A stretch of DNA of 64,000 nt from Candidatus Aenigmatarchaeota archaeon (lineage in GTDB: Archaea; Aenigmatarchaeota; Aenigmatarchaeia; CG10238-14): the NCBI GenBank assembly GCA_030018415.1, contig JASEGC010000001.1, positions 323,067-387,066 on the forward strand. Reading direction: 5' to 3'. The position numbers were made by a program, and so were the translations under genes. The notes under the pieces were generated by a model. The model was given only the letters and a program-made list of their open reading frames with translations, was not told the DNA's origin and searched no databases. Positions 5,004-31,615 of this stretch are shown piece by piece (positions within the stretch are counted from its first letter, which is position 1; each line of letters opens with the position of its first letter).

Positions 5004-5107
5004 TAAACTAACTATTATTTAGGTTTAATAACGGATATAATTATAGAAAAATGGAGATAGACAACCGAACCTAGAGATAAACAACTAATAGAGAACTTCT
5101 TTATTTT

Positions 5108-6790: not shown

Positions 6791-6804
6791 GACATCCTAA
6801 GTAA

Positions 6805-7959: not shown

Positions 7960-8006
7960 AATTCTCTATTAAAAGGTTTATAGATAAAATTATAAATGAT
8001 GGTTAA

Positions 8007-9870: not shown

Positions 9871-9930
9871 GTTTTGCACTTTTATAAAATTCTTCGTTTT
9901 CTGAGCCAAAATAATTATTGGTGATGAAAA

Positions 9931-12549: not shown

Positions 12550-13350
12550 GTGATTTTAATGAGCAGCATTTTCAAGAAAACCGTTGAAAGTTTTGGGTAC
12601 GAATGGCAAAAATTTCCAATACTATATCCAGTATACGAAAGTGAGTTTTTAGAATGGATAAAACCGATCAAACAAGATTTCTTCAAAGATAAACTGGTTC
12701 TTGATGCTGGATGTGGAGGGGGTAGACATAGTTATTTTGCTGCAAAATACGGAACAAAAAAAGTTATAGCCATGGATATAAGCAAGGGCGCTATAAAAGC
12801 GGCCTATAAACTTCTTAAAAATTTTAAAAATGTTAATGTAATTTGTGGTAATATTTGTAATCCACCGTTCAAACAAAAGTTTGATTTTATATATTCCATT
12901 GGTGTGTTACATCACCTTCCAGACCCAGAAAAAGGATTTAAAAACTTGGTTAAATTATTAAAACCAAACGCTACGATTTTTATTTGGGTATATGGTAAAG
13001 AAAACAATTTCGTTTTTGTGAATATGATCGATCCTATAAGAAGGTACCTTACTTCAAGATTACCTCCTAACATACAATACATAATTAGTTTTTTCCTAGG
13101 TGGTTTACTACATCTCACCACAAAAATATACAATATACTTAAGTTCTTACCTTACAGAGACTACTTCTTAAGTATCTCTAGTCACCCATTCAAGTTTAAG
13201 CATTTGACTAGCTTTGATTTCATTTCTGCGCCATCAGTTAAGTTTGTACGGAAAAATGAAATAAGAAAATGGTTTGATGATGCCAATTTTAAAAACATTA
13301 GTATTTTATGGCGTAATCGAAATAGTTGGAAAGGAATTGGTACTAAATAA
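12550..13350 (+). CDS. Class I SAM-dependent methyltransferase
   Basis: 'LVLDAGCGGGRHSYFAAKYG' motif I; 'VLHHLPDPEKGFKNL'. Confidence 0.7.
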   Translation: MILMSSIFKKTVESFGYEWQKFPILYPVYESEFLEWIKPIKQDFFKDKLVLDAGCGGGRHSYFAAKYGTKKVIAMDISKGAIKAAYKLLKNFKNVNVICGNICNPPFKQKFDFIYSIGVLHHLPDPEKGFKNLVKLLKPNATIFIWVYGKENNFVFVNMIDPIRRYLTSRLPPNIQYIISFFLGGLLHLTTKIYNILKFLPYRDYFLSISSHPFKFKHLTSFDFISAPSVKFVRKNEIRKWFDDANFKNISILWRNRNSWKGIGTK

Positions 13351-16921: not shown

Positions 16922-18805
16922 TTGATTAAAGAAATTGAGTATATGGAAATTAGAAAACCACTTCTCATACTTATAGCAATAATTTCATTTTCTTTAGTTT
17001 CTTTTCTTAAACTTTTATCTGGCTTACCAAATGCCATCGATACAGGTGCGCATTTATTTCGTTTAATTTATCTCAAGAAGCACTTGCAAGAAGGTATAGT
17101 TCCTTTGTGGAACGTTGATTGGTATGCTGGTGCACCATTTCTTCTTCTCTATGCACCACTAGCTTATTATTTTTCATCCTTCTGGCCAATAGGCGATTAC
17201 ATTTTTCTCTATAAATTTTTGGAAGTACTATTTGAAACATTTCTCACAGTTTCGGTTTATTTCCTGTCAAAGACTGTTCTTAAGAAAAGAGAATTAGCTT
17301 TGCTTTCTACCTTCTTATTTGTCATCGTACCACAAAACATCTGGAATTTTTCAGTTGTCGACAGATTCCCAACACTATTAGAAGCATTTTTCTTTGTTAG
17401 CAGTTTAATGTTTTTTATAAAATTTCTTTCTTTTCAAAAAAGTAGAGATAAAATAATCTCTGGAATATTTTCTGGTTTGGTTTTTCTCACTCAAGGTTTC
17501 GGCTATCTCTTAATGCTAATTATTTTGGTATTCTTCAAAATTATTGCTTGGAAAAAATGTAAAGTAAAGGATTTGTTTGTAATTATTCTCATCTCCTTCT
17601 TAGTAGCTTCACCATGGCTAATTCTAAGTGCAGGTAGTTTCATTTACTATCTTCAAAATCCCTATGAAATGGTTTGGATGGTCAGAAAATTTATAGATGT
17701 ACCCAGAATGGGTGCTATCCTTTTTTCATTAGGTTTACCACTTGTAGCATGCTTATTCTTAAAATTTAACTTATTAAAAAGGCTAAGATACTCCATAGCG
17801 ATTTGTTTAATTCTATTATCTCTACTTGTGTTTTTCGTTCAAATACCCTTAAAGTACAATATTACTAAACCAATAATCTCTGCTATACTTATACTCACTG
17901 CAATAGTTGTGATTACTACAAATAGAAACATCTACAAGTTCAACGAACTTTTAAAGTACTTATTTTATTTAACAATCTTTCTAGTAATTTTATCATCCTC
18001 ACTATTTCTATATTCTTTCACCTTTTTATCCTTCTTAGACCCTTATAGAGTAGCTTTTTATGCTTCAATTCCATTAGCAATAATTTCTGCTTTCATTCTT
18101 CAAAAAAATAGAGTTGGACTGACTCTTTCTATAGTAGCAATTCTAGTAGTTTCTTTGACATTCCTTTCAACTCGATACACAAAAATGTTACACATAGATG
18201 AAAATCTCATTGCTACATTAAAAAATTCGCCAGAAGAAGGAAGGCTATTAATGATCGAGCCAGAATTATGGATGCATATAGTACCAGCTTTGACAAACAA
18301 GCCTTCTATAGATGGTTTTTCTCCTTTTGAGAGATTTTTACCATATTTTAGAAACTTAGGTTTTTCTAATAACTTTGGTCTTTGGTTCGAAGGCACAACT
18401 TTAGAACAAAAGCAAGAAGTTTATAATCAAATCTTTTTAAACGTTTCTAAGTTCGCTATAAAGTACATAATTATTGCTGACAATTCTCCAATTAAACTTT
18501 CAGAATACCTAGAGTTTGAGACGATATATAATCAAAACGGGTGGAAAATTTTGAAATTAAAGCAACCAATCAGTTTTATAGAAAATGGCACTCTAACTAA
18601 GATAAGTCCAAATGAATTACTAATCTATCCTCAAGGTGACACACTTCTTCTAAAACAAACCTATTTTCCAGGTTGGCAAACTAGCTGTGGAAAAATTAAA
18701 AAATCTGTAGATGGTTTAACTATAATTGAAAATAAAAACTGTGAAAAAATAGTCTTAAAGTATAATCCTTTATCAGCTTTACCACAGCTATCGTTTAAAT
18801 CTTAA
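16922..18805 (+). CDS. Polytopic membrane protein (putative GT-C glycosyltransferase)
   Basis: 627 aa; N-terminal 'HLFRLIYLKKHLQEGIVPLWNVDWYAGAPFLLLYAPLAYY' resembles ArnT/PMT-like families; C-terminal soluble domain. Confidence 0.4.
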   Translation: MIKEIEYMEIRKPLLILIAIISFSLVSFLKLLSGLPNAIDTGAHLFRLIYLKKHLQEGIVPLWNVDWYAGAPFLLLYAPLAYYFSSFWPIGDYIFLYKFLEVLFETFLTVSVYFLSKTVLKKRELALLSTFLFVIVPQNIWNFSVVDRFPTLLEAFFFVSSLMFFIKFLSFQKSRDKIISGIFSGLVFLTQGFGYLLMLIILVFFKIIAWKKCKVKDLFVIILISFLVASPWLILSAGSFIYYLQNPYEMVWMVRKFIDVPRMGAILFSLGLPLVACLFLKFNLLKRLRYSIAICLILLSLLVFFVQIPLKYNITKPIISAILILTAIVVITTNRNIYKFNELLKYLFYLTIFLVILSSSLFLYSFTFLSFLDPYRVAFYASIPLAIISAFILQKNRVGLTLSIVAILVVSLTFLSTRYTKMLHIDENLIATLKNSPEEGRLLMIEPELWMHIVPALTNKPSIDGFSPFERFLPYFRNLGFSNNFGLWFEGTTLEQKQEVYNQIFLNVSKFAIKYIIIADNSPIKLSEYLEFETIYNQNGWKILKLKQPISFIENGTLTKISPNELLIYPQGDTLLLKQTYFPGWQTSCGKIKKSVDGLTIIENKNCEKIVLKYNPLSALPQLSFKS

Positions 18806-18823
18806 AATTTAAATATTGATAGG

Positions 18824-19525
18824 ATGTACAAAGGATTAAAAGTTTCAGTAGTCATACCAGCTTATAACGAAGAAGAAAGTATTTTCAAAACTGTAAAAGA
18901 TTTTTCTCAGCCATGTGTAGATGAGATAATAGTTGTTGATAATAATTGTACGGATAAAACCCCAGAATTAGCAAGGAAAGCCGGTGCAAAGGTAATTAAG
19001 CAACCATTACAAGGTTATGGTTTTGCTATTAGGAAAGGTTTAGAAAAAGCTAAAGGGGATGTGATAATAATCACAGAAGCAGACCAAACTTTTATTGGTA
19101 AAGATGTTTACAAGCTTTTGGCCTATATAGAAGATGCCGACATGGTTTTGGGTACAAGAACTTGTTTACAACTAGTTTCTAAAGATGCAAATATGGGTAG
19201 ATTTTTCCTATGGGGCAACATTTTCATTGCCAAATTAATTCAATTTTTCTATGGAAATGTTCGCCTAACCGATGTTGGTTGTACGATGCGTGCAATAAGA
19301 AAAAAAGCTTTAAAGAAAATTATAAAAAAATTTTTAGTTGGTGGAAGTCATTTTTCACCAGAAATGATAATCGAGGCTTTAAAGGCAAATTTAAAAATTG
19401 TAGAAGTTCCTTTGAATTACAGAAAAAGGATTGGGATTGGGAAAATTACTTCTTCTGGAAAATGGCGAGCATTTAAAGTTGGGTTGAGGATGATTTGGTT
19501 GATTTTCCAAAAAAGATTTTCATAA
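18824..19525 (+). CDS. Glycosyltransferase family 2 (DPM1-like, soluble)
   Basis: 'KVSVVIPAYNEEESI...IIVVDNNCTDKT'. Confidence 0.75.
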   Translation: MYKGLKVSVVIPAYNEEESIFKTVKDFSQPCVDEIIVVDNNCTDKTPELARKAGAKVIKQPLQGYGFAIRKGLEKAKGDVIIITEADQTFIGKDVYKLLAYIEDADMVLGTRTCLQLVSKDANMGRFFLWGNIFIAKLIQFFYGNVRLTDVGCTMRAIRKKALKKIIKKFLVGGSHFSPEMIIEALKANLKIVEVPLNYRKRIGIGKITSSGKWRAFKVGLRMIWLIFQKRFS

Positions 19526-19538
19526 GAAGAATGATATT

Positions 19539-21053
19539 ATGTCTTCAATAAAAAGAATGGTTTCAAACACATTCTACTTATTTCTAAACTTATTCTCTTC
19601 CACACTTCTAAGCATACTTTACTTCATTATTGCAGGAAAATTACTTACACCTTCTGAATACGGCATAGCAAACTCAACCATCCAGTTCGTAGCTCTAATA
19701 ACTGCCTTTTCAACGATCGGGATGACGAACGCGACATTAAAATTAGTTTCAGAATATTTTGCGACGAAAAAAATGAAAAAACTCTATGGCTCTGTCAAAT
19801 ATTGTCTAAAATTTCTTCTCGTAGCGAATATACCAATATCAGTTTTTATCTTCATATTCTCTCCAACCCTAGCCACGTATATTTTTAAAGACCCAAATCT
19901 TGCCCCACCTTTTAGAATATCTGCGTTCATGATCATGGTTTTAACTCTGAGCTCGTACTTTGGTTCAGTCATATACGGACTAGGAAAAGTAAAAATTTAC
20001 TTTTTAACAGATTTTTTGGCAAATGCTACGAAAGTACTATTAGCTGTGATTTTGATAGTATTTCTCAAATTAGGGTTCTGGGGACCTATCATCGGTTATT
20101 TTCTCGGATTAACTTTCTCGACTGTCATGAGGTTTAAAAAAATGGGAATAGAGGATGATGGTGAACCGGATAAAAAAGTTATATGGCAATATGCGCTTCC
20201 TGCCCTAATAACAACAATTTTTGGGACAATACTGACCACAACGCCAGTACTAATCCTTTCTTCTTTTTCTTCGACTACTGAAGCAGGAGTTTTTTCTTTA
20301 GTTAACGCTCTCGCTTCTTTACTCATGTTCATGCCGAACGTTCTCTACACAGCAAGTTTTCCAATATTCTCGGGTATGCACGGGAAGAAAGATCGTTCGG
20401 GGATCGAGAAACTTCTGAATGTAACGTTCAAATATGCTATTCTCATTTCAGTTCCCATATCTTTGGTTTTTATAGTTTTCCCAGAGTTCATGATAAGGCT
20501 GGTTGCAAAGCCTGCTTACCTTCCCGGCGTTACAACGTTATCTGTTCTGGGTATGGTTGGTTTGTTCTGGGGTATAGGAAATATATTACTCAATGCTTTG
20601 TATGCATTAGGCAAACCAAAGATTAACAGGAACATCATGCTAGGAACTTCTATCATTTATCTGATACTCTCTGTTCCTCTATCTATACATTATGCTTCTC
20701 TCGGCATGGCAACAACTTACCTTATAGCCATTTCATTCCTGTTTTTTTCCTCATTCTTTTTCATAAGGAAATTTTACAGGTTACATCTAGATTACAAGTA
20801 TTTAATAAAAATTCTTTCTTCCTCCTTCATCGCTTTGATAATACTGATAACTCTGATGTCTGGAAGCGATTCTGTCTACATGTTTATAATCATTTCTTTA
20901 ATCAGTTTCGCTTTCTACATATTCTTACTCCTCATCTTGAAGACTTTTGATGTGAACGATTTGAAATTCTTGAATGAGTCGAAAAAGATGTCTCCAAAAA
21001 AACTTTTATTCATTTTTGAATTCCTGGAGAAGTTATTAAAGAAGTTTTTGTGA
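19539..21053 (+). CDS. Wzx-like oligosaccharide flippase (MOP superfamily polysaccharide biosynthesis protein)
   Basis: 504 aa with about 12-14 TM helices, typical flippase length and topology. Confidence 0.6.
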   Translation: MSSIKRMVSNTFYLFLNLFSSTLLSILYFIIAGKLLTPSEYGIANSTIQFVALITAFSTIGMTNATLKLVSEYFATKKMKKLYGSVKYCLKFLLVANIPISVFIFIFSPTLATYIFKDPNLAPPFRISAFMIMVLTLSSYFGSVIYGLGKVKIYFLTDFLANATKVLLAVILIVFLKLGFWGPIIGYFLGLTFSTVMRFKKMGIEDDGEPDKKVIWQYALPALITTIFGTILTTTPVLILSSFSSTTEAGVFSLVNALASLLMFMPNVLYTASFPIFSGMHGKKDRSGIEKLLNVTFKYAILISVPISLVFIVFPEFMIRLVAKPAYLPGVTTLSVLGMVGLFWGIGNILLNALYALGKPKINRNIMLGTSIIYLILSVPLSIHYASLGMATTYLIAISFLFFSSFFFIRKFYRLHLDYKYLIKILSSSFIALIILITLMSGSDSVYMFIIISLISFAFYIFLLLILKTFDVNDLKFLNESKKMSPKKLLFIFEFLEKLLKKFL

Positions 21054-21057
21054 TCGT

Positions 21058-21459
21058 GTGAAAAAACATGTTCACAGCAAAAAATACGAGAATTTTATCA
21101 AAGGTTTATTGTTGTCTCCGAGCGTTAACTTGGGATGCGGAAGTTTCAAGATAGCAGACGTGAACATAGATGTCGAGGGAACAGTTAGTCCAGATATAAT
21201 ATGGGACTTAAACAAATTTCCATATCCTTTCAGAGAGAAAGTGTACAAAAGTGTTTTGTTGCATCACTCGTTAGAGCACTTAGAGAATCCATATAAAGTT
21301 TTGAGTGAATGTGTTAGAATACTTCAGGACGACGGCAGGATAATAATCGTCGTTCCAAGTCCACAAAATCCAAGATACAGAATGGAAAACCATAAACAAT
21401 TTTTCACCAGGAATTCCCTTAAAAATTTAGTTTCAAAATATTTTTCGAATGTACCATAA
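21058..21459 (+). CDS. SAM-dependent methyltransferase (Methyltransf_11-like), C-terminus truncated by a tandem duplication
   Basis: 'LGCGSFKIADVNIDVEG...LLHHSLEHLENPYKVL...DDGRIIIVVPS'; the stop lies at the junction of the 64-bp duplication. Confidence 0.6.
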   Translation: MKKHVHSKKYENFIKGLLLSPSVNLGCGSFKIADVNIDVEGTVSPDIIWDLNKFPYPFREKVYKSVLLHHSLEHLENPYKVLSECVRILQDDGRIIIVVPSPQNPRYRMENHKQFFTRNSLKNLVSKYFSNVP

Positions 21460-21516
21460 ACAATTTTTCACCAGGAATTCCCTTAAAAATTTAGTTTCAA
21501 AATATTTTTCGAATGT
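21389..21516. repeat. Perfect 64-bp tandem duplication (2 copies)
   Basis: Copy 1 at 21389-21452 and copy 2 at 21453-21516 are identical ('accataaacaatttttcaccaggaattcccttaaaaatttagtttcaaaatatttttcgaatgt'). Confidence 0.9.
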
Positions 21517-21637: not shown

Positions 21638-23107
21638 ATGAAAATACTACTTTTGAACCCATCATTCTTACCAAGATACACAAGAGCTTCGCGCAGCCCA
21701 TGCGTGGCACGAGGAGGTACTTTTTACTATCCTTATTTTTTGGCTTATGCCTGCGGGGTTTTAGAGAAAAATGGTTTTGACGGTAAAGTTAAGCTAGTAG
21801 ATGCTGTTGCTAATGAATGGGATCATAAAAAAACCGTAAGGTTTGTTAAATTTTTTGCTCCAAATTTAGTTGTTATTGATACGTCTACACCGAGCATATA
21901 CAATGACATAGAAGTTGCAACAAAGATTAAAAAAGCTTTACCAAAGGTTCACATCAACTTAGTTGGTACTCATCCTACAAGAGTAACAGATGAAACTTTT
22001 GGTTTGTCTAAAGCTATAGATTCAATCTGTAGAGACGAGTATGATTATACTTTAGTCGATTTAGCTAAAGCTATAGAAAAAGGTAAACCTTTAAAAGGAA
22101 TAAAAGGACTTTCCTTCAGGAAAGATGGAAAAATTATTCACAATGAACCGAGGGAAAGAATTAAAAATTTAGATGAACTACCATTTGTCTCAGAAGTCTA
22201 CGAAAAACACTTTGGAATAGGAGGAATTAAAAGATATTTCTATGCTTCTTTAAAACATCCACAAGTAACAATTTTAACAGCCAGAGGATGTCCTTTCAAC
22301 TGCTTATTTTGTAATATACCGTTCAAAGCTTCCTATAGGGCGAGATCTCCCAAAAATGTAATCGAAGAATTTGAGTATATCCAAACTGAATTGCCAGAAG
22401 TTAATGAAGTGATGATAGAAGACGACACCTTTCCTATATCAAAAGAAAGAACTTTGAAGGTTTGCAAGCTTTTGAAAGAAAGAGGAATTAAATTGACATG
22501 GTCCTGTAACGCAAGAGTAAACACCGATTTGGAAACTTTGAAAGCCATGAAAGAAAGTGGTTGTCGTTTGCTTTGTGTTGGTTTTGAGTCCCCAGTTCAA
22601 TCAGTTTTGGATGAAGTACACAAAAAAACAACTGCTGAAATGCAAATCAAGTTCATGAATGATTGTAGAAAAGTTGGTTTATTGGTTAACGGTTGTTTTA
22701 TCCTTGGGATGCCTGGAGATACGAAAGAAACTATAAGAGAAACGATAGAGTTTGCGAAAAAACTAAATCCAGATACAGCACAATTCTACTCGGCTTACGC
22801 TTATCCTGGAACAGAGATGTGGGATTGGGCAAAAGAAAACGGTTATTTAACTTCAGAGAGGTATGACGCTTTGCTAACAGAAGAAGGTTATCATAAAGGA
22901 AACATTAATCTTCCTGATCTACCGGCTGAGGAAGTTGATAGATTATGCAGAGAAGCTCTAAAGGAGTTCTATCTCAGGAAAGATTACATATTTTATAAGC
23001 TTAGTCAAATCATTACCAATTTTGATGAAGCCAGAAGGACATTGATGTCAGGAAGGTTTTTTTTCAAGCATATACTCCTACCACAACCACAGGCAGCATC
23101 TCCTTAA
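21638..23107 (+). CDS. Cobalamin-binding radical SAM enzyme (paralog 2)
   Basis: 489 aa; 'ARGCPFNCLFCNIP'; near-identical N-terminus to 26806-28278 ('LLLNPSFLPRYTRASRSPCVARGGTFY'). Confidence 0.8.
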   Translation: MKILLLNPSFLPRYTRASRSPCVARGGTFYYPYFLAYACGVLEKNGFDGKVKLVDAVANEWDHKKTVRFVKFFAPNLVVIDTSTPSIYNDIEVATKIKKALPKVHINLVGTHPTRVTDETFGLSKAIDSICRDEYDYTLVDLAKAIEKGKPLKGIKGLSFRKDGKIIHNEPRERIKNLDELPFVSEVYEKHFGIGGIKRYFYASLKHPQVTILTARGCPFNCLFCNIPFKASYRARSPKNVIEEFEYIQTELPEVNEVMIEDDTFPISKERTLKVCKLLKERGIKLTWSCNARVNTDLETLKAMKESGCRLLCVGFESPVQSVLDEVHKKTTAEMQIKFMNDCRKVGLLVNGCFILGMPGDTKETIRETIEFAKKLNPDTAQFYSAYAYPGTEMWDWAKENGYLTSERYDALLTEEGYHKGNINLPDLPAEEVDRLCREALKEFYLRKDYIFYKLSQIITNFDEARRTLMSGRFFFKHILLPQPQAASP

Positions 23108-23135
23108 GTATAAATTTTCTCAAGAGTACAATCTT

Positions 23136-24128
23136 TTGAAGAAAATGTTATCAGTCATAATCCCAGCTTACAACGCAGAAAAAACGATTGCTTCTACTAT
23201 TAAGGCTTTACTAGATCAGAATTACCCAAAAAATAAATATGAAATAATAATCGTTGACGATGGGTCTGTTGACAAAACAGTTGAAGTTGCTTCCCAGTTT
23301 CCAGTAAAAGTCATAAAGTTGAAACATAATGGTCCAGCCCATGCAAGGAACATGGGAGCAAAAAAAGCCAAGGGTAGTATTATTCTCTTCACAGACTCTG
23401 ATTGCATTCCCGATAAGAATTGGATTAGAGAAATGATAAAACCCCTTAAAAATTCTGGGGTCGTTGGAGTATCAGGGACTTACAAGACCTTGAATCAAGA
23501 TAAACTCATGGCAAGGTTTATTGGATATGAGATCGAGCAAAGACATGATAACATGAAAAAACTTAAGTATATCGATTTCGTGGGAACTTTCAGTGCCGCT
23601 TACAAAAAAGATATCTTCCTTAAGTTCGGTGGTTTTGATGAAAGGTTTAAAAAAGCTTCTGGTGAAGATCCTGAGTTATCGTTTAGGATTTCGAAAGCAA
23701 GCTTAAAGATGGTTTTTAATCCCAAAGCCTTTGTTTATCATCCCCACATCGATTCGTTCTGGAAATACCTAAAATGGAAATACGAAAGAGCTGTATGGAG
23801 AAACTTGATGTACTGGGAAAAACACAAAGAAAAAGTTTTTTCAGATAGTTATACTCCTAGGATGTTGTTACCACAAATTCTTTTATCTGGTTTGGTCGTT
23901 TTAGCATCTTTGATACCGATTCTACTCGGGCAAATATCTCTTATCTTCATTCCCCTTGTTCTACTCTTGGTTATAGCTTTCATTTTCAACTTAGATGTTA
24001 TCGTCTTTATTTGGAGAAGGGAAAAAAAGTTAGCCGTATTATCTCCGCTCGTATTTTTCTTCAGGAATATTTCTGTATTGGTAGGAGTAATCGTGGGAGT
24101 TTTAAAATTTTTATTCAAGAAGTTTTAA
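23136..24128 (+). CDS. Glycosyltransferase family 2 with C-terminal TM domain
   Basis: 'LSVIIPAYNAEKTI...IIIVDDGSVDKT...FTDSDC'; paralog of 25806-26801. Confidence 0.75.
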   Translation: MKKMLSVIIPAYNAEKTIASTIKALLDQNYPKNKYEIIIVDDGSVDKTVEVASQFPVKVIKLKHNGPAHARNMGAKKAKGSIILFTDSDCIPDKNWIREMIKPLKNSGVVGVSGTYKTLNQDKLMARFIGYEIEQRHDNMKKLKYIDFVGTFSAAYKKDIFLKFGGFDERFKKASGEDPELSFRISKASLKMVFNPKAFVYHPHIDSFWKYLKWKYERAVWRNLMYWEKHKEKVFSDSYTPRMLLPQILLSGLVVLASLIPILLGQISLIFIPLVLLLVIAFIFNLDVIVFIWRREKKLAVLSPLVFFFRNISVLVGVIVGVLKFLFKKF

Positions 24129-24159
24129 CAAACTTTGATTGTACTGAAAGGATGTTTAC

Positions 24160-25773
24160 TTAAACTATCTCATAAATGATATTTCCATCACAACCTCCTT
24201 GTTGTAAGCATTGTTCCAAAGATGGCCCATTTTCGTATATCTTTTTAAAGTGTTGTGGGTTGTCTTCTAAGAATTTTACAAAATCGATGTCATAATTTTC
24301 TGAAAAGTGCTGATTTCTATAGTCGATGCTGAACTTTTGAATGAATATATGAGTGATTCCATGTTGCTTCGCCACATCTACAGTATAGTTAACATCCCTA
24401 CTCAGAGCTATGTCAGGGATTGTACCTGTTCCCACAGCATTCCTTTGGCAGTTATACAAAGCTCTCCAGCCCCAAACAGTGTATAAGGAGACATTTTTAG
24501 GAGTGTTTTCCTTCACCCAGTTGCATGCCTCGAAGAAGATAGGTGAGAATTGTTTGACTCTAAACATCACATCGAGTTTTGATCTGACATTCTGATAACT
24601 GAAGAAAAATATAGCGAGAAAAACTACAAGTGCAATGTATTTTTGGTAGTTCTTTAAAAAATTATACAGTTCTGCAAAATAAACACCAGATACTAAGGCA
24701 AATACAGGGACCCAACCTAGAGTATTTCTGGCTGTGTCTTCAGCTCTATCAGTTGAGAAATAAAACATGACAAAAAACAGTAAGAGATAAATTGCGATGT
24801 AACTAGTTACATATCTCCTCTTTGAAAATAAAATTATTAATCCGCTAAAAGTACCTAATAAAATCAACCATATGTTACCGTAGGCGAAATCTAAATAGTT
24901 AACAATGCCCATACTATAAACACTTTGTTCTGTACCTACTTGTTCTACTCGACCAGCGAAATGATATTTTTCCTCGAATTCATCCGTGGAACATTTGCTG
25001 TTATCAAAAATATTTATGAGTGGTAAATCACGACAAAGTGGGTTGTTGAAATAGTAAATATTTCTTATGAGAAAAGTGCTTGGTATTAAAATAAGAATTG
25101 ATAGTAATATGGTGTATTTTTTAATGATGTTTGAGAACTTCTTTTTTATCATCAATTCGTAAAGAAGCCCGATCAAAACGAAAGGGTAGATTGCTAAACC
25201 AGATATATCAGTTAAGAAGGCAAGGCCACCAAAAATACCAGCTAAAATCAAAATTTTTTTGTTATCATCCTTCATCGCGATAAGAAACAAAAGAAAAAAT
25301 AGAGTAACATACAATGTATACAAAGTATCCGTATAAAACAAGACAGAGTAAGTAACAAGGGAAGGTATGGTCACTGAGAAAATAGCTGCGATAAGGCCAA
25401 CTTTTTCATTCCAAATTTTTTTGGTTAGCAGGTAGACGACTATACCGATTAAAAAAGTAGTGAATGGGGTTAAAAATTTAATTATACTATCTTCATGACC
25501 CAAAAGAAGAAAGAAACTCCCTTCCAACAAGTTAAACAAAGGAGGTCTTACGAACCCACCATAATTGAGTTTTGTTTCCCCCATTCCAGTTAAAACGGGG
25601 TATTCAACTTCTTCAGCCATATACTGGGCCATTCTGGTATGAAACCCTTCATCTCCAAAAGCTATAGGAGAGTTGAAAGTAACTTGCAACTTTAAAACCA
25701 GTATAATCGAAAGAAAAACCAATAAAATAATTATTTCCGGCCTTTTAATTTCAATCGTTATTTCCTTTTCCAT
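24160..25773 (-). CDS. Polytopic membrane protein (putative GT-C glycosyltransferase) with C-terminal extracytoplasmic domain
   Basis: 537 aa, more than 10 TM segments; lies between the two rSAM/GT2 modules. Confidence 0.4.
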   Translation of the reverse strand: MEKEITIEIKRPEIIILLVFLSIILVLKLQVTFNSPIAFGDEGFHTRMAQYMAEEVEYPVLTGMGETKLNYGGFVRPPLFNLLEGSFFLLLGHEDSIIKFLTPFTTFLIGIVVYLLTKKIWNEKVGLIAAIFSVTIPSLVTYSVLFYTDTLYTLYVTLFFLLFLIAMKDDNKKILILAGIFGGLAFLTDISGLAIYPFVLIGLLYELMIKKKFSNIIKKYTILLSILILIPSTFLIRNIYYFNNPLCRDLPLINIFDNSKCSTDEFEEKYHFAGRVEQVGTEQSVYSMGIVNYLDFAYGNIWLILLGTFSGLIILFSKRRYVTSYIAIYLLLFFVMFYFSTDRAEDTARNTLGWVPVFALVSGVYFAELYNFLKNYQKYIALVVFLAIFFFSYQNVRSKLDVMFRVKQFSPIFFEACNWVKENTPKNVSLYTVWGWRALYNCQRNAVGTGTIPDIALSRDVNYTVDVAKQHGITHIFIQKFSIDYRNQHFSENYDIDFVKFLEDNPQHFKKIYENGPSLEQCLQQGGCDGNIIYEIV

Positions 25774-25805
25774 GCTTCCACTTCTAATGAATTTTAAAAA
25801 TACAG

Positions 25806-26801
25806 TTATACTAATTTATCTCTTATGAAACTTAATAAACCAAACAACAACCCGCTTGCCCACACGAATCCCCTTATAAAAAATAAGAATGCAATAAGAA
25901 TAGCAACTTTGTAATCCTTTTTTTTCAACGGAATTACAGTAGCTGGTATATGGATGATTAAAAGCACAAATGAAAAAACGAGAAATAAGAATTTTGAAAT
26001 TAAAAGAGAGAACGGAAGTAAAATATACAAGAACGGTTGAATTAAGGTTGTTATTCCTGCGTATTCATCCCCTTTCATAAATTCAGGTCTTCTTAGGTAG
26101 AGGAGAACTCTCCAGAAAGCATGATTAAATTGTTTTTTGAAGTATTCTACCAGAGATTCAGGATGCTTATGCCACACGTATGTATTCTTCAAGAAAATCA
26201 GATGGTATCCACTCTTTATTATTCTATAGCTTAAGTCGTTATCTTCTGCAGATGCAGTTTTAAAACTAGTATCGAACCCTTTCAACTTCTCAAGAATATC
26301 ACGTCGATAAGCAGTGCTATAACTGGCTAAAAAATTTGTTTTTTCACTGATCTTATTATGTCTTTGTTCTATTTCATATCCAACAAACCTAGCAATCCAG
26401 GAATTTTTATTCCATGTTTGGTACTTTACGCCCACACCAGCGACTTTTTCATTCTCGAATGGTTTTAGTATGTTTTTTAACCAATTCTTCCCGACTTTAC
26501 AATCAGAATCAAGAAAGATTACTATTTTCCCTCTAGCTTTTTTCCATCCGAGGTTTCTAGCTTCGGCTGGGCCTTTGTGTCTTTGTTTTACTAGTTTTAT
26601 CGGATAATTCTTCACTATTCTCAGCGTATTATCTTTGCTTCCATCATCGATAACGATTATTTCCACTTTCTCCCTGAATTTCTTTCTTTGTTTTAATAAA
26701 GAGTCTAAGACTTCTCTTATCGTGCTTTCAGAATTATAAGTCGGGATAACTATTGATATCATTAATCTTAAATAACTATTCAAAATATTTGTTTTTATCA
26801 T
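25806..26801 (-). CDS. Glycosyltransferase family 2 with C-terminal TM domain
   Basis: 'ISIVIPTYNSESTI...IIVIDDGSKDNT...FLDSDC'; likely true start at the internal 'MISIVIPTYN'. Confidence 0.75.
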   Translation of the reverse strand: MIKTNILNSYLRLMISIVIPTYNSESTIREVLDSLLKQRKKFREKVEIIVIDDGSKDNTLRIVKNYPIKLVKQRHKGPAEARNLGWKKARGKIVIFLDSDCKVGKNWLKNILKPFENEKVAGVGVKYQTWNKNSWIARFVGYEIEQRHNKISEKTNFLASYSTAYRRDILEKLKGFDTSFKTASAEDNDLSYRIIKSGYHLIFLKNTYVWHKHPESLVEYFKKQFNHAFWRVLLYLRRPEFMKGDEYAGITTLIQPFLYILLPFSLLISKFLFLVFSFVLLIIHIPATVIPLKKKDYKVAILIAFLFFIRGFVWASGLLFGLLSFIRDKLV

Positions 26802-26805
26802 AAGA

Positions 26806-28278
26806 GTGGTATCAATGAGAATCTTATTACTTAACCCACCTTTTTTACCGAGATACTCTAGACAGAGTAGATCGCCTTGTGTGAGTAAAGGTGGTACCTT
26901 CTATTTGCCATATTATTTGGCATATGCGGCAGGAGCTTTGGAGAAATCAGGATTTTCTGATATTAAGCTCATGGATGCTATAGCAAAGAATTGGTCTCGT
27001 AAAGAAACGATAAATTTTATCAAGTCCTTTAATCCAGATTTGATAATTGTTGATACAAGTACTCCAAGCATCCATAATGATGTCGAAGTTGCAGCTGAGA
27101 TAAAAAAAGCTTTACCAAATTCTCATGTTAACCTAGTTGGGACCCATCTAACCAGAAAAACAGAAGAAACTTTTGGTTTATCAGAAGCTATAGATTCAAT
27201 TTGTAGAGGAGAATATGATTTTACCTTAGTTGAGCTAGCCGAAGCTATAGAAAGTGAAAAACCTCTAAGAGAGATTGAAGGCTTATCTTTCAGAGAAGAT
27301 GGGAAAATTTTTCATAATCCTGAAAGACCATTGCTTACTTCAAAAGAATTGGATGAATTACCGTTTGTTTCTGAAGTCTATAAAAAACACTTGAACATAT
27401 GGGATTACTTTTATGCGTCTCTACTCTACCCACAAGTCACCATCTTAACTGCAAGAGGATGTCCGTTTAGTTGTAGCTTCTGTAACATACCTTTCAAAAA
27501 TTCTTACAGACCTAGAAGTCCAGAGAATGTGGTTGATGAATTTGAATACATTCAAGATGAATTACCGGAAGTAAGAGAAGTTATGATAGAGGACGATACT
27601 TTTCCAGTTTCAAAGAGAAGAACCATCGAAATTTCTGATTTGTTGATTAAAAGGAAAATAAAGATTTCTTGGTCATGTAATGCAAGAGTCGATACAGATT
27701 ACGAAACTTTGAAAAGAATGAAAGATGCTGGTTGCAGGCTATTATGCGTGGGGTTCGAGAGTCCTGTTCAAAAAACTCTAAACACTGTTCATAAAAAAAC
27801 AACTGCTAGAATGCAATTAGAGTTTATGAAGAATTGCAACAAACTTGGTTTACTGGTTAATGGGTGTTTTATTCTTGGCTTACCAGGAGATACAGAGGAA
27901 ACTATAAAAGAAACGATAGAATTTGCAAAAAAACTTAATCCTGATACTGTTCAATTCTATCCTCTTTTCTTATACCCAGGAACGGAAGCCTGGGATTGGG
28001 CAGAAGAAAATGGGTATCTTGCCAGCAAAGATTACTCAGCTTTGTTAACTAGAGAAGGTAAACACTTAAGTAATGCAGATTTACCTGGTTTAAACCATCT
28101 AAGGGCTACTTATCTTTGTGATAAGGCATTGAGAGAGTTCTACCTTCGACCAAAATACATTTTTTACAAACTCTTTCAGATTCTTTCCAACTTAGGAGAA
28201 GCTCAAAGGACTTTTCTTTCAGCAAAAATTTTCTTCAAGAACTTAATTTCTCCTTCCGTCCAACAAGCGTCTCTTTAA
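26806..28278 (+). CDS. Cobalamin-binding radical SAM enzyme (paralog 3)
   Basis: 490 aa; 'ARGCPFSCSFCNIP'; likely true start at 'MRILLLNPP'. Confidence 0.8.
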   Translation: MVSMRILLLNPPFLPRYSRQSRSPCVSKGGTFYLPYYLAYAAGALEKSGFSDIKLMDAIAKNWSRKETINFIKSFNPDLIIVDTSTPSIHNDVEVAAEIKKALPNSHVNLVGTHLTRKTEETFGLSEAIDSICRGEYDFTLVELAEAIESEKPLREIEGLSFREDGKIFHNPERPLLTSKELDELPFVSEVYKKHLNIWDYFYASLLYPQVTILTARGCPFSCSFCNIPFKNSYRPRSPENVVDEFEYIQDELPEVREVMIEDDTFPVSKRRTIEISDLLIKRKIKISWSCNARVDTDYETLKRMKDAGCRLLCVGFESPVQKTLNTVHKKTTARMQLEFMKNCNKLGLLVNGCFILGLPGDTEETIKETIEFAKKLNPDTVQFYPLFLYPGTEAWDWAEENGYLASKDYSALLTREGKHLSNADLPGLNHLRATYLCDKALREFYLRPKYIFYKLFQILSNLGEAQRTFLSAKIFFKNLISPSVQQASL

Positions 28279-28683
28279 ATAATTTTTGGTAAAAATTTTC
28301 CGATTTTTCTTATTATTTGAGATAATTATTTCTTAACTTAAAAAATAATTTCTTGAGGAAAATTAACAACTCTTCTAAAAATGGAACAATTGCTATTTGT
28401 CTAAATTTTACTATATGAAAATTATTATTTGTTAGCATCCTTATAAAGTTGGGTTTAGTGAAAATTTCTTATGATCTTCAAAAAATGAACATAAAATCAA
28501 GTGTTAGTATTTAGTAATTCAACCGTAATGACAAATGCCCCGATAAAAATTAGCACTGGTAAATCATAAGTTAGAAAATAAAGCTAGAGGAACATACAAT
28601 GAAAAATTTGGATTGGTTGATTTTATCAATAAACTCGAAAAATTTTATGAAAAAACTTTTTGAAGGAATTTTAATTCTTTACA

Positions 28684-29199
28684 CTAAGAAATTTTTCTAA
28701 ACGCAAAAACCCAACCTGTAGCTATTGCTGGGGTCATCTTACCAAGCAAAATATCGACCAATAAAAAATTTTTATAGAATGGTAGGAATCCTAAACTTTC
28801 ACCGAACATCGGTCTAGGGTAAAAATCAATCAATTCAAATCCATATTTTTGTAATAAAATTTTGAATTCATTTGGTTTCCAATAGTGTTTGTGTTCTTCT
28901 AGTTTCAGAAATAAATTAAGAACCTCCCAAAAGGACGATTTATTCGGTATGCTTACTATTAGCAAACCATTGGATTTAAGATGATTATGAATTTTCTTTA
29001 AACTTTTATTGGGGTATTTTAAATGCTCTAAAATATCTAAAGCGAGAATTAAGTCAAACTTTTCTTTAAAATCAATTTTTACAATTTTTCTTGCAATGTT
29101 GAGTCTATCTTTGTTAACGTTAATGCCGATAACATTCCATTTTTCGCTTAAAATCAAAGTTAACAAACCACATCCGCAACCTATATCCAGAATTAACAC
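28684..29199 (-). CDS. Class I SAM-dependent methyltransferase
   Basis: 'MLILDIGCGCGLLTLIL' motif I; 'ILALDILEHL'. Confidence 0.7.
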   Translation of the reverse strand: MLILDIGCGCGLLTLILSEKWNVIGINVNKDRLNIARKIVKIDFKEKFDLILALDILEHLKYPNKSLKKIHNHLKSNGLLIVSIPNKSSFWEVLNLFLKLEEHKHYWKPNEFKILLQKYGFELIDFYPRPMFGESLGFLPFYKNFLLVDILLGKMTPAIATGWVFAFRKIS

Positions 29200-29549: not shown

Positions 29550-30498
29550 TCATTCTAGGCATAAACCATTATAAATATTTCTTAATTTTTTTGCAATTAT
29601 TTTCCAGTCTAATTTTTCTTCCGCTGTTTTTCGTGCATTTCTTTCTATTTTCTTTCTAAGCATCTCATTATACAACAATTCAACTGTTGCTTCACCGAAC
29701 TTCTTTGGATTATTCGAAGTCAAAATGCCATTATGATAGTTTTCTATAATTTCTTTGGCAACACCAACATTACTTGCAACTACGGCTTTTCCGCTAGCTA
29801 AGTATTCGCCAAGTTTAACAGGACTTCTTGAGTGGTTAGCCAAATTATCCTTCATCGGTAGTACGACCACATCTGCAGCTCCGATGAATTCAGGTACCAA
29901 TTCCCTTCTTTTATGACCAACAAAAATTACATTTCTTTCAAGTTTTAATTTTTTAACTCGTTCAAAAAATTCTATTTTCCTCGGTCCATCTCCTACAATT
30001 ATTAATTTTGCAGGAAGATCATTTACAACATATTTCATAGCGTCTATAACTATATCTAAATCGCACGACTTGTAAAGAACACCAACAAAAACAATCAGAG
30101 GACAACTGAATTTATCTCTAATTTTTGAACCCTTATATTTCGGTTTAAAAAAATCAACATCAACTCCGTTTGGTATCAAGTACACTTTTGAATTAAATTT
30201 TTCGGCTATTTTTTTAGAAAAGTGGTAACTGTTACTATCGCATCGGCTTTTCTTACGCATGATATCTGGAATGAATCCAAAAAATCCCTGAGAAAGAATG
30301 GATCGAATTCAGCGAAGCCGCCTTCCCCCTCCCAATCGTCCCAATCGAGTATTAGCTTTGCACCCTTCAATTTTGAAATAACATAAGAAGGAATAAATGA
30401 ACTCAGCAAAGGTTTAAAACAATGTACAATATCATAATCTTTCATGAATTTTATAACTTTGTAGAAAATACCATGTGAAAGTGTTAAGTACAAACTTT
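29550..30498 (-). pseudogene. GT4 glycosyltransferase, frameshifted body (C-terminal and middle parts)
   Basis: ORFs 29550-30260 (GT4 C-terminal domain 'PLIVFVGVLYKSCDLD...AADVVVLPM') and 30206-30493 (middle part) overlap out of frame; upstream half separated by an IS insertion. Confidence 0.6.
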
Positions 30499-31361
30499 AG
30501 GGGTGTGCAAAATTACAACACACCCCAGCTCTAATTCTTATGTATGAACAAAGCCTATGAAATAGTTAGACTCTTGATAAATAAAAAGATTGTTCATGAA
30601 AAACATGGAAGAGGCAGAAAGGGCTACGGAGTACTGAGGAGGGTTAGACTTCTAGCGTATGCGATGCTCAAGAGGATACACACTGACAAGGGTTTGATAG
30701 AACACTTGAAGAAGAACCCAAGAGTAACGAGAATATTGGGATTCAAGACAATTCCACACAGAACAACTATAGGAAGGTGGAAGAACCATTCTGATGCATT
30801 AAAACAAACCTTCAACAGATTGAGTGACATGATTCAATCGATGATACCGACTGAGCTTCTGATAGTAGACTCGACTCCTCTAGAGGATGATGATCCTGAT
30901 GCAAGAGTAGGCTTCTACTCCAGAGGACCATTCAAGGGATTCAAGACTCATTCGAGCATTAACCAGGCTGGCATACCTTTGAGAGCAGAAGTGACAACAG
31001 GGAACAGACACGATTGTCCATTGCTGCCAAAGTTACTAGTCAAGTCAGTCCAAACTCTGGGGGATTCAGGATATGACAGTAAGAGTAACAGGAAGGCTAT
31101 CAGGAGCATTGGTAGCAAATCAATCATAGCCAAGAACAGAAGGAGGTCGAAGAAGAGGAGATGGGTGCCGAAGATTCTCAAGAAGAAACGATACATAGTT
31201 GAACAGTTCAATTCATTACTCAAAGAAGTTCTCAGAGAATGCTGGAAGAGGTTCAGAGGATTAGAGAAGAAAGCTTCAGTAGTCTACTCAGCGTTGATAT
31301 CGATACTGTTGATTGCTCTACAAGCGATGATAAGAAAGTTAATTAATTTTGCACACATCTA
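30499..31361 (+). mobile_element. IS5-family insertion sequence inserted into a GT4 gene
   Basis: Terminal inverted repeats 'gtgtgcaaaatta' at 30503-30515 and, reverse-complemented, 31344-31356. Flanked by 10-bp direct repeats 'tacaaacttt' (30489-30498, 31362-31371) consistent with a target-site duplication. Contains a transposase ORF. Confidence 0.6.
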
Positions 31362-31386
31362 TACAAACTTTTTAAATAGGGAGTGA
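30544..31386 (+). CDS. IS5-family DDE transposase
   Basis: 280 aa; 'LLIVDSTPLED', 'GDSGYDSKSNRKAI', 'YIVEQFNSLLK' match the IS5 D-D-E blocks; ORF runs slightly past the right IR. Confidence 0.65.
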   Translation: MNKAYEIVRLLINKKIVHEKHGRGRKGYGVLRRVRLLAYAMLKRIHTDKGLIEHLKKNPRVTRILGFKTIPHRTTIGRWKNHSDALKQTFNRLSDMIQSMIPTELLIVDSTPLEDDDPDARVGFYSRGPFKGFKTHSSINQAGIPLRAEVTTGNRHDCPLLPKLLVKSVQTLGDSGYDSKSNRKAIRSIGSKSIIAKNRRRSKKRRWVPKILKKKRYIVEQFNSLLKEVLRECWKRFRGLEKKASVVYSALISILLIALQAMIRKLINFAHIYTNFLNRE

Positions 31387-31549
31387 ATTTTATGTTTAAT
31401 TCTTCAAACCACTCTCCGGCATTATTACTCTTACTACCATCAAAAACTACTTCTACATCAAATTTCTTTGAAACATTTTTTGCCAAATTCAATATTCTTG
31501 TAGCATTTCCACTAGTTATATCAGAGTAAGACATCATGCAGATTTTCAA
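31362..31549 (-). pseudogene. N-terminal fragment of the IS-disrupted GT4 glycosyltransferase
   Basis: 68-aa ORF 'MKICMMSYSDITSGNATRILNLAKNVSKKFDVEVVFDG' (typical GT4 N-terminus) ends inside the IS right end. Confidence 0.55.
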
Positions 31550-31615
31550 GCTTTCACCTATAAAACATTAATAAAAGTAACATTCAAATATCAAAGTATA
31601 TCTTAAGGCATTGGC

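Follow-up and report, generated by a model that had tools for sequence, protein, structure and literature searches.

What do two related pairs of genes do on either side of a membrane protein gene in an archaeal genome, and how did they come to lie there? The question is raised by a 64,000-nt stretch of DNA of Candidatus Aenigmatarchaeota archaeon (assembly GCA_030018415.1, contig JASEGC010000001.1, positions 323,067 to 387,066; hereafter the window, G+C ~33%), in which the genes for two radical S-adenosylmethionine (SAM) proteins, rSAM1 and rSAM2, each adjoin a gene for a glycosyltransferase (GT) of family GT2, and a gene for a membrane protein of the GT-C type stands between the two pairs:

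21638-23107, plus strand: rSAM1, predicted class B (cobalamin-type) HpnJ-like radical SAM protein (NCBI MDI6825967.1)
23136-24128, plus strand: GT2a, membrane GT2, the canonical partner downstream of the rSAM gene (PF00535/PF13641)
24160-25773, minus strand: GT-C (PMT_2) of 537 aa, convergent with GT2a and co-directional with GT2b (PF13231)
25806-26801, minus strand: GT2b, membrane GT2 from an old subfamily of its own (PF00535/PF13641/PF13632; NCBI MDI6825970.1)
26763-26814: AT-rich divergent spacer of 52 bp between GT2b and rSAM2, a probable compact bidirectional archaeal promoter as the sequence reads
26806/26815-28278, plus strand: rSAM2, second predicted HpnJ-like class B radical SAM protein (487 aa; NCBI MDI6825971.1)

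Taken as a whole, the locus is best explained, and we hold this with modest confidence, as a glycosylation island that carries two old, uncharacterised rSAM–GT2 modules, brought side by side by the joining of cassettes and engaged in the tailoring of lipid-linked sugars.

An earlier note on this DNA had read the layout as rSAM(+) GT2(+) membrane protein(-) GT2(-) rSAM(+), that is, with both rSAM genes on the plus strand, the GT2 genes mutually inverted and pair 2 alone divergent, and all five open reading frames (ORFs) agree with this in position and strand. It had also taken the two genes of each kind for paralogues, the GT2 proteins for proteins with C-terminal transmembrane (TM) segments and the middle protein for GT-C-like. 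These points were borne out as well: BLASTP aligned the rSAMs from end to end (490 aa, 68% identity, 696 bits, E=0) and the GT2s over 327 aa, hydrophobic C-terminus included (231 bits, E=1e-78, 38% identity), hydrophobic blocks lie at the C-terminus of both GT2a and GT2b, and the polytopic middle protein matches PMT_2 (PF13231). A Logan assembly contig (L001, run SRR23186779) carries the five-gene layout with 100% identity; this match leaves misassembly possible, as that run is perhaps the source data of the metagenome-assembled genome (MAG).

To explain the arrangement, the earlier note had suggested a duplication with rearrangement whose copies then diverged. Comparison of 21.0-29.3 kb with itself by BLASTN found the rSAM genes matching directly over 1149 nt (70.7%) and the GT2 genes matching in inverted orientation over 248 nt (65.7%), so that this dot-plot-type check did not refute the paralogy, and it found no similarity between the pairs outside the coding regions. 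Synonymous sites are saturated (proportion of synonymous differences, pS, 0.73 for the rSAMs and 0.80 for the GT2s), nonsynonymous divergence (dN) is 0.26 and 0.58, and identical nucleotide runs reach at most 17 nt and 10 nt, respectively. No gene conversion between the rSAM copies was seen, either in that 17-nt run or in 30-codon windows, whose identity reached 83% at most. Trees were built by neighbour-joining with Kimura distances from sequences picked by similarity and by two peptide patterns. In the rSAM tree (136 sequences, 200 bootstraps), rSAM1 fell with eight orthologues in a clade of nine (96%) and rSAM2 with P0010, P0011 and P0015 in a clade of four (100%); both lay inside one 34-member clade (86%), and they were sisters in 0 of 200 replicates. 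The proteins P0002-P0009 are closer to rSAM1 (73-84% identity) than rSAM2 is, and P0010, P0011 and P0015 are 77-78% identical to rSAM2 and ~70% to rSAM1. In the GT2 tree (165 sequences), GT2a belonged to an 8-member clade (95%) of GT2s encoded directly downstream of rSAMs (loci L007, L017, L019, L025, L028, L071 and L087) and GT2b to a 19-member clade (91%) with P0122-P0139 (55-75% identity), and the smallest clade that held both comprised 163 of the 165 sequences, which means that they join at the root. Moreover, the identity of GT2a to partners from distant archaea or other phyla (43-74%) exceeds that to GT2b (38%). Sister copies, a low synonymous divergence (dS) and similarity reaching beyond the coding sequence, the marks of a recent segmental duplication, were thus not found, and because of the trees, the saturation and the short identical runs, a recent duplication in place, an inversion of one copy and gene conversion are excluded.

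The layouts of related loci bear on the same question. A scan of genome contigs with rSAM1 gave only 2 loci, hence we relied mostly on metagenome contigs and exact-protein look-ups, from which ~95 related loci were fetched and annotated with the window proteins; their ORFs were called mechanically and the taxon labels are those of the MAG submitters. rSAM1 has thousands of homologues, the best 120 of which are all at least 59% identical, generically named, and come from MAGs of Aenigmarchaeota, Asgard, Hydrothermarchaeota, Pacearchaeota and Euryarchaeota; the radical SAM family is unusually conserved (60-84% identity across archaeal phyla). For 43 of 67 distinct family rSAMs a GT2 of the GT2a/b family lies directly downstream on the same strand, often with a 4-nt overlap (L028, L025), and the count of adjacent GT2s rises to 47 of 67 with two that lie upstream on the same strand and two that lie upstream and divergent (L009, L054); 5 of the 67 rSAMs lie at contig ends. 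Despite the shortness of the contigs, the module is accompanied by a Wzx gene, upstream or downstream, in 19 of the 67 loci, by a GT-C orthologue in 10 and by AglB in 7, and class I methyltransferase genes also recur beside it. The 19.5-25.8 kb part of the window (Wzx, methyltransferase, rSAM1, GT2a and the convergent GT-C) has gene for gene the arrangement of L028, L017, L004 and L010. Pair 1, with Wzx-methyltransferase and the convergent GT-C, is therefore the canonical cassette.

Pair 2 has relatives of a different kind. In L094, L095 and L097, an HpnJ-like rSAM gene is divergent from a GT2b-type gene across a 65-bp spacer, and the latter is followed by a PMT_2 GT-C, a GT4 (AglH-like) and a membrane protein of ~610 aa, in the vicinity of STT3; the order in L093 is GT2b, then a methyltransferase and PMT_2. 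The rSAMs of L094, L095 and L097 are ~37-38% identical to rSAM1 and rSAM2 and score 369-413 bits on the HpnJ model, and they form a separate HpnJ-like subfamily, type-B. L009 has orthologues of both GT2b (64%) and rSAM2 (78%), which diverge across a 57-bp spacer, and this pair adjoins an AglB fragment 78% identical to the AglB of the window. The close relative L096 (RadA 89% and AglB 80% identical) has at 4839-10871 the order GT-C <- GT2b (73%) <- GT1 <- methyltransferase, then type-B rSAM -> AglB, and its type-B rSAM is 39% identical to rSAM2. Because the same layout recurs in L094, L095 and L097, and the pair itself in L009, the divergent order of GT2b and rSAM2 is inherited and not the product of a local inversion; 'rSAM <-|-> GT2b -> GT-C' is the customary layout for GT2b, a GT2 of a different, deeply diverged subfamily.

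The GT-C between the pairs is 56-60% identical to GT-Cs beside rSAM1 orthologues, compared with 44-51% to those linked to GT2b, the one in L096 included, and is sister to the GT-C of L004 (74% bootstrap; the deeper nodes of the GT-C tree are unresolved). By sequence it belongs with pair 1, and by synteny its orthogroup goes with both cassette types in other genomes. In the simplest history, pair 1 and the GT-C would be the resident canonical cassette, a GT2b cassette would have recombined in upstream of that GT-C, and the usual type-B rSAM of GT2b would have been exchanged, in the window and in L009, for rSAM2, an old paralogue of rSAM1. The alternative of the earlier note, that one rSAM–GT2 pair was duplicated in place, that one GT2 was inverted and that the copies diverged in this lineage, has on its side that the genes are true paralogues 2.7 kb apart and that both rSAMs lie in the one 34-member clade, which allows a duplication in a wider, possibly Aenigmarchaeota-level, group. 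We nevertheless regard it as very unlikely: each rSAM has orthologues of its own (73-84% and 77-78%) in place of the other as sister, GT2a is nearer to partners in other phyla than to GT2b, from which it is split at the root, synonymous sites are saturated in both pairs, the divergent layout and the linkage of GT2b to a GT-C are kept elsewhere, and the close relative L096 pairs GT2b with a different rSAM subfamily. Thus, of the proposed duplication with rearrangement and divergence, the true paralogy stood and the local duplication and inversion did not; on the saturation, the absent sisterhood, the root split and the inherited layout, the local model is largely refuted.

The same note had remarked on the very short intergenic region of pair 2, and 4 nt indeed separate the maximal ORFs (26801/26806). 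The spacer is 52 nt long (26763-26814) with the starts kept in orthologues and in the NCBI annotation, which are Met14 at 26762 as the likely true start of GT2b (318 aa) and 26815 for rSAM2 (487 aa), whose ORF can be extended to a GTG at 26806. It contains 'AAAATATTT' at 26782-26790, from which the ATG of rSAM2 is ~25-33 nt away and that of GT2b ~20-28 nt, and the equivalent spacers of L009, L094 and L095 (57-65 bp) have TATA-like boxes. The spacer is thus probably a compact bidirectional archaeal promoter, a reading made by eye. T-rich tracts are visible 3′ of the rSAM2 stop codon, and a search of the 405-nt gap after rSAM2 (28279-28683) for a degraded GT2 or another gene remnant found none.

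To investigate what the modules might do, we turn to the proteins. By domains and predicted fold, rSAM1 and rSAM2 are assigned to the cobalamin-type (class B) radical SAM proteins: both match PF04055 at 87-89 bits and a B12-binding domain (PF02310, 39.2 bits in rSAM2 for a cutoff of 32.1, and 31.6 bits, slightly below it, in rSAM1), with the [4Fe-4S] motif in the PF04055 core and a Rossmann-type B12-binding domain at the N-terminus as in class B. The CX3CX2C cysteines (C218, C222 and C225 of rSAM1) are invariant in 39 family sequences. The AlphaFold model of rSAM1 (mean predicted confidence, pLDDT, 87) shows both domains of the class B fold; the best structural matches are TsrM, AprD4 (TMq 0.74), CysS, OxsB, MgmA and TokK, it aligns across both domains with TsrM, CysS, OxsB, TokK and MgmA, and AprD4 is the nearest full-length match by TM-score. 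A search of PDB sequences with rSAM1, GT2a and the GT-C gave generic or distant matches only. Among NCBIfam models, HpnJ (TIGR03471) scores highest, with 431.6 bits for rSAM1 and 412.0 bits for rSAM2, followed by BchE (190 and 179 bits) and by methylase families (at most 137 bits). HpnJ is also the closest characterised relative, with 37-39% identity over ~92-98% of the length. We rejected rSAM1 and rSAM2 as HpnJ proper, because both score below the equivalog cutoff of 577.6 bits, and, among the annotated ORFs of the island, they stand without hpnI, hpnK or a hopanoid context; a genuine HpnJ from a Mycetohabitans megaplasmid, with hpnI and hpnK as neighbours, scores 841.8 bits on the same model. 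Of 84 residues invariant in the 39 family members, rSAM2 keeps 84, a homologue on a Lawsonia plasmid 64, type-B 55, HpnJ 50 and the third rSAM of the island (see below) 36. The motif R16-x-S18-R19-S20-P21 (within rSAM1 residues 14-28, window ~21677-21721) is invariant in the 39 members and missing in HpnJ, and this segment is the sole internal stretch that is disordered in the AlphaFold model (pLDDT below 50); the loop may be a substrate- or partner-binding lid.

GT2a and GT2b score 126-128 bits on PF00535 and have the features of GT2 enzymes: DxD-type motifs, a catalytic acidic residue, and a GT-A domain with a C-terminal helical membrane bundle. Residues D39, D40, D85, D87, E173 and D174 are invariant or nearly so in 52 sequences and are present in GT2a, the hydrophobic blocks of which lie at 242-330, at the C-terminus; GT2b retains every residue that is invariant in its alignment. 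The AlphaFold model of GT2b (pLDDT 93.9) shows a GT-A domain, an interface helix with a conserved W-R and four C-terminal helices (helices at 204-224, 238-255, 257-269, 272-280 and 284-317), a bundle that looks like one half of the BcsA/HAS channel. Its top Foldseek match over the full length (E=1e-14) is an archaeal enzyme, PcManGT of Pyrobaculum calidifontis (Pcal_0472; PDB 6YV7-6YV9, match to 6YV7), although sequence identity is only ~20%, and hyaluronan synthases and BcsA follow (TMq 0.64-0.75). PcManGT is encoded in a putative N-glycosylation cluster, Gandini and co-workers reportedly described it in 2020 as GDP-, Mn- and dolichyl-phosphate-dependent, and we know of no radical SAM partner for it. 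It binds GDP-Man (PMC12595478). The fold of GT2a and GT2b is thus predicted to be a minimal cellulose-synthase-like one of the PcManGT type, and fold and context together suggest a dolichyl-phosphate-dependent transfer. Two other identities were considered. That of dolichyl-phosphate mannose synthase (DPMS), GtrB or ArnC-type synthases is not supported: for a cutoff of 529 bits on the ArnC model, GT2a and GT2b reach 30-39 bits, and no DPMS or GtrB structure was among the top 50 Foldseek matches of the GT2b model. That of HpnI homologues was rejected, as they give no BLAST match, an hhalign probability of 45% and 23-34 bits on the HpnI model (cutoff 310). One homologue is labelled 'AglE' by one source. 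The GT-C has the features of its PMT_2 class: it scores 52.9 bits on PF13231 (gathering score 26.1), with a weak STT3 match, and has a multi-spanning N-terminal domain with at least eight hydrophobic blocks, a soluble C-terminal part and, as the sequence reads, the acidic first-loop motif 'GDEGFH' ('FGDEGFH') directly after TM1.

All four rSAM and GT2 genes look functional, rSAM2 because all of its 84 family invariants are kept and GT2a because the GT2-family invariants can be recognised in it by eye. This bears on a second explanation of the layout, that a rearrangement mediated by an insertion sequence (IS) brought in pair 2, now a remnant in decay or without function, and that pair 1 alone works. 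The surroundings of pair 2 are in fact eroded, with an IS-split GT1 pseudogene, two transposases and a truncated methyltransferase, and rSAM2 stands alone before the 405-nt gap without a detectable gene. But the GT2b and rSAM2 ORFs are intact with all their invariants, dN is well under the saturated pS in both pairs, and the same pair is conserved in L009, so that we give this explanation very little credence.

For the two modules, our best model is a radical tailoring of dolichol-linked sugars in two parallel branches. With a nucleotide sugar as donor, each GT2 would add a single sugar to an acceptor that is dolichyl phosphate or is linked to it, at the cytoplasmic membrane face. The coupled, co-translated rSAM would then abstract a hydrogen from the lipid-linked sugar and remodel it, and because of the affinity to HpnJ and BchE we lean towards a ring formation or rearrangement of the HpnJ/BchE/OxsB type in preference to methylation; a deoxygenation like that of AprD4 is a further possibility. 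Methyltransferases might O-methylate the sugar and Wzx might flip the product across the membrane, where AglB would use it in an N-glycan and/or a step involving the GT-C would follow. Since the rSAMs are similar and the GT2s far more diverged, the two modules could yield two differently specified tailored sugars or acceptors. The suggestion of the earlier note that the diverged copies possibly have two specificities fits with this, dN being far higher for the GT2s than for the rSAMs. That note had also placed both in one lipid-linked modification step at the membrane protein; the two modules may both feed the GT-C between them, whose orthogroup accompanies either cassette type in other genomes, but the island has further PMT_2 proteins and AglB.

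Several points weigh against this picture. The search patterns bias the tree samples, and support at deep nodes is weak; 15 of the 67 family rSAMs have no adjacent family GT2; and for every family member we infer the substrate, the product and even the use of cobalamin. Of the 84 family-invariant residues, 34 differ in HpnJ, the N-terminal RxSRSP loop among them, so that the substrate, and possibly the chemistry, would be unlike those of HpnJ. The GT2s are no relatives of HpnI by BLAST and hhalign. An HpnJ-type contraction of the reducing-end sugar would make the product no glycosyl donor for the GT-C, and a sugar contracted on the lipid phosphate would be an end group and not a GT-C substrate. 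Lastly, most class B rSAMs are methylases (PMC13459092, PMC13598231), from which the chief competing chemistry follows, that the rSAMs methylate an unactivated carbon of a lipid- or nucleotide-linked sugar installed by the neighbouring GT2. TsrM, CysS, TokK and MgmA are among the structural neighbours of rSAM1, secondary NCBIfam matches are to PhpK-type and RiPP (ribosomally synthesised and post-translationally modified peptide) C-methyltransferases, and the methyltransferase-rich glycan clusters suggest heavily methylated sugars. However, the top-scoring families, HpnJ (412-432 bits) and BchE (179-190 bits), are non-methylating, methylases stay at or below 137 bits, and the nearest full-length structure, AprD4 (TMq 0.74), is a non-methylating sugar diol-dehydratase, so that we consider C-methylation rather unlikely, though a serious contender.

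The remodelling of a lipid-linked sugar has precedents. The module would work most like HpnI/HpnJ, and the organisation of its pathway would resemble the Agl (AglD/AglR/AglS) or Arn branches. As in the module, a membrane GT2 gene adjoins a soluble class B (B12-domain) radical SAM gene in HpnI/HpnJ, and HpnJ acts on a lipid-linked sugar. Unlike in the reference locus L092 (hpnI-hpnJ-hpnK), the order in the module is rSAM then GT2, and the context is an archaeal AglB island without HpnK or hopanoid genes. In Haloferax volcanii, the final sugar is placed by AglD/AglR/AglS on a dolichol phosphate of its own, flipped in a Wzx-like manner and transferred on the outside by a Dol-P-sugar-dependent membrane GT, Dol-P denoting dolichyl phosphate. 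By gene types (GT2, Wzx/MOP flippase and PMT-like GT-C near aglB) this side branch with a GT-C is a precedent for the island, but GT2a and GT2b have the predicted fold of PcManGT and cellulose synthase and not that of Dol-P-sugar synthases, and to our knowledge no radical SAM enzyme takes part in the AglD/AglR/AglS branch. In the ArnC/ArnD/ArnEF/ArnT pathway of lipid A aminoarabinose, a sugar is tailored on polyprenyl phosphate before flipping and GT-C transfer; the island has an ArnC-like GT2 at 8932-9870 (209 bits), but the tailoring step of Arn is a deformylase and not a radical SAM enzyme, and GT2a and GT2b score 30-39 bits on ArnC. Among further enzymes, BchE is the second NCBIfam model and OxsB and AprD4 are top structural matches, yet identity is ~15-28% and their substrates are a porphyrin, a nucleotide and an aminoglycoside. 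OxsB catalyses a ring contraction, and AprD4 is a sugar 1,2-diol dehydratase that has a B12 domain yet is not known to use cobalamin. Only a few cobalamin-dependent radical SAM enzymes do not methylate, HpnJ, BchE and OxsB among them, and these few form or rearrange rings without exception (PMC13598231; also PMC13459092). For Cds of Sulfolobus acidocaldarius (Saci_1489), a radical SAM enzyme, a contraction of lipid-linked glucose into a cyclopentyl polyol ether has been proposed (PMC13459092). Compared by description only, Cds has chemistry of the kind that the HpnJ similarity suggests, but its homologues are mainly from acidic habitats (PMC13459092) and the module family comes from sediment and groundwater metagenomes, as contig and MAG names read.

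Two narrower readings build on ring contraction. If the modules were the archaeal counterpart of HpnI/HpnJ, they would make a cyclitol (calditol-like) ether head group on a membrane lipid and have nothing to do with protein glycosylation. HpnJ as the closest characterised relative, a GT2–rSAM pairing that resembles hpnI-hpnJ, an LPG_synthase_TM gene that occurs both beside a hpnIJK locus and near a module, and the ring contraction proposed likewise for the calditol synthase Cds (PMC13459092) all point that way; but the GT2 is not HpnI-like, no HpnK/YdjC deacetylase is found among the annotated island ORFs, the module sits in AglB/Wzx/GT-C/GT4 glycosylation islands, and the habitats of the Cds homologues differ from those of the module family, which makes this counterpart improbable. 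It is likewise a long shot that the strongly conserved families of rSAM1/2 and type-B, each paired with a PcManGT-like GT2 and a PMT_2 GT-C near aglB, perform an HpnJ/Cds-type radical ring contraction on dolichol-linked sugars and so provide surface glycans or lipids with carbocyclic (cyclitol-ether) 'sugars'. With the same small chance, this would apply to many uncultured archaea (DPANN, Asgard, Hydrothermarchaeota and Thermococci-related) and a few bacteria such as Lawsonia, and the organism of the window would make two kinds. If it were true, a new class of archaeal glycan building block would be at hand and possibly a biomarker, carbasugar ethers being resistant to glycosidases and acid.

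Two side observations concern related loci. An LPG_synthase_TM gene (similar to the flippase domain of MprF) lies 3′ of hpnK in the genuine hpnIJK locus L092 (8186-9247), and another lies two genes upstream of the archaeal rSAM–GT2 pair in L008 (7296-8267); it is possible that this protein is a lipid-flipping component shared by the two. Genes of the heptose-pathway type (SIS isomerase, GHMP kinase, HAD phosphatase and nucleotidyltransferase) occur with an HpnJ-like rSAM in L008 (1-2704), which lies on an archaeal contig of 1.1 Mb, and in L091, a 27-kb Lawsonia intracellularis plasmid (NC_008012.1, 7026-17434; rSAM 44.5% identical), and these gene contents hint at heptose as the substrate sugar in some lineages.

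The paralogous layout is ordinary cassette shuffling in a glycosylation island, and the underlying module is the more instructive part. Our literature searches found no paper that describes the archaeal rSAM family of rSAM1 and rSAM2, its pairing with GT2 or a radical SAM enzyme in Agl clusters. The radical SAM family has no name, its genes nearly always form an operon with that of a membrane GT2, and its nearest characterised relatives are rare ring-forming cobalamin enzymes. Were the reaction of the module known, the biochemistry of archaeal glycans or lipid carriers would gain a radical step, and thousands of 'radical SAM protein' annotations would acquire a function. In the window, two modules combine a shared rSAM chemistry with very different GT2s, which amounts to a natural experiment, and the rSAM subfamily is swapped beside the same GT2 between the window (rSAM2) and L096 (type-B).

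The five genes are part of one N-/surface-glycosylation island that spans ~4-34 kb with AglB at its end (Pfam and NCBIfam annotation, 30 ORFs). Its other features are:

4020-5003, minus strand: GT2, 27-28% identical to GT2a/b, next to the PMT_2 at 5108-6790
5108-6790, minus strand: PMT_2
6805-7959, minus strand: GT4-type GT
8007-8969, plus strand: epimerase/dehydratase
8932-9870, plus strand: ArnC/GtrB-like polyprenyl-phosphate GT2 (NCBIfam ArnC 208.6 bits over the full length, PgfS 180.7 bits)
9931-11109, plus strand: DDE transposase, directly 5′ of the third B12-rSAM
11143-12546, plus strand: third B12-binding radical SAM protein, 33% identical to rSAM1/2, followed by a methyltransferase
12550-13350, plus strand: methyltransferase
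13356-15275, plus strand: AsnB-like amidotransferase (XrtA/PEP-CTERM amidotransferase model 482 bits, cutoff 816.9)
15272-16882, plus strand: second PMT_2
16922-18805, plus strand: polytopic protein of 627 aa
18824-19525, plus strand: AglJ- or dolichyl-phosphate hexose transferase-like GT2 (NCBIfam AglJ 120 bits, DPhHxTase 100 bits)
19539-21053, plus strand: Wzx/MOP-type flippase (Polysacc_synt; PF01943/PF13440), first gene of the canonical cassette
21058-21459, plus strand: small class I SAM methyltransferase (Methyltransf_11), truncated by a frameshift
28684-29199, minus strand: class I SAM methyltransferase (Methyltransf_23/11/12); similar ones accompany the module in many loci
29550-31552, minus strand: GT1/GT4-type glycosyltransferase pseudogene (Glycos_transf_1, by tblastn), frameshifted and IS-split
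30544-31386, plus strand: DDE transposase (DDE_Tnp_1), inside the GT1 pseudogene
31616-33811, plus strand: AglB/STT3 oligosaccharyltransferase (PF02516), the island anchor, 80% identical to the AglB of L096

Besides the GT-C between the pairs, the island thus carries two further PMT_2 proteins and AglB. Two of its other GT2s are better candidates for Dol-P-monosaccharide synthases than GT2a and GT2b. The protein of 18824-19525 scores below the curated cutoffs of AglJ (325) and DPhHxTase (375), its orthologues (81-90% identical) have the same position in L004, L013, L016 and L017, and it might provide the GT-C proteins with Dol-P-sugar donors; that of 8932-9870, likewise below the cutoffs (ArnC 529, PgfS 500) and with two TM blocks at the C-terminus, is a candidate second Dol-P-sugar synthase. 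The orthologues of Wzx (66-68% identical) likewise lie 5′ of rSAM1 orthologues in L004, L005, L013 and L016. On NCBIfam models, the third rSAM scores 234 bits for HpnJ, 219 for ApyD and 208 for BchE. AglB is followed by the genes for a histone, RPA and RadA, and the same AglB-histone-RPA-RadA synteny is found in L004, L010 and L096.

By tblastn, the GT1 pseudogene consists of a C-terminal piece (29550-30260), a frameshifted middle (30209-30472) and an N-terminal piece of 47 aa (31406-31552). The small methyltransferase 5′ of rSAM1 is frameshifted by a perfect 64-bp tandem duplication (21389-21452 / 21453-21516); with one copy deleted, a 167-aa ORF is restored that ends ~4 nt before rSAM1 and aligns end to end, with 71% identity, with L014 6131-6637. 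The duplication could be an artefact of assembly or a genuine inactivation, perhaps a reversible one. Read together, the two transposases, the IS-split GT1 gene and the broken methyltransferase show an island that is under active cassette reshuffling. The small methyltransferase gene is also split into two ORFs in L004, L013, L015 and L016. The asparagine-synthase-type amidotransferase at 13356-15275 is a possible hint of amidated uronic acids in the glycan. Lastly, L006 and L007 (ERZ27247709 k141_166560; Ga0315282_10000036) are unusually rich in class B rSAMs for glycan clusters: they carry six full-length B12-rSAM genes within 21 kb, with a further ORF of the B12 domain only and interleaved PMT_2, GT1, Alg13/14-like and methyltransferase genes.

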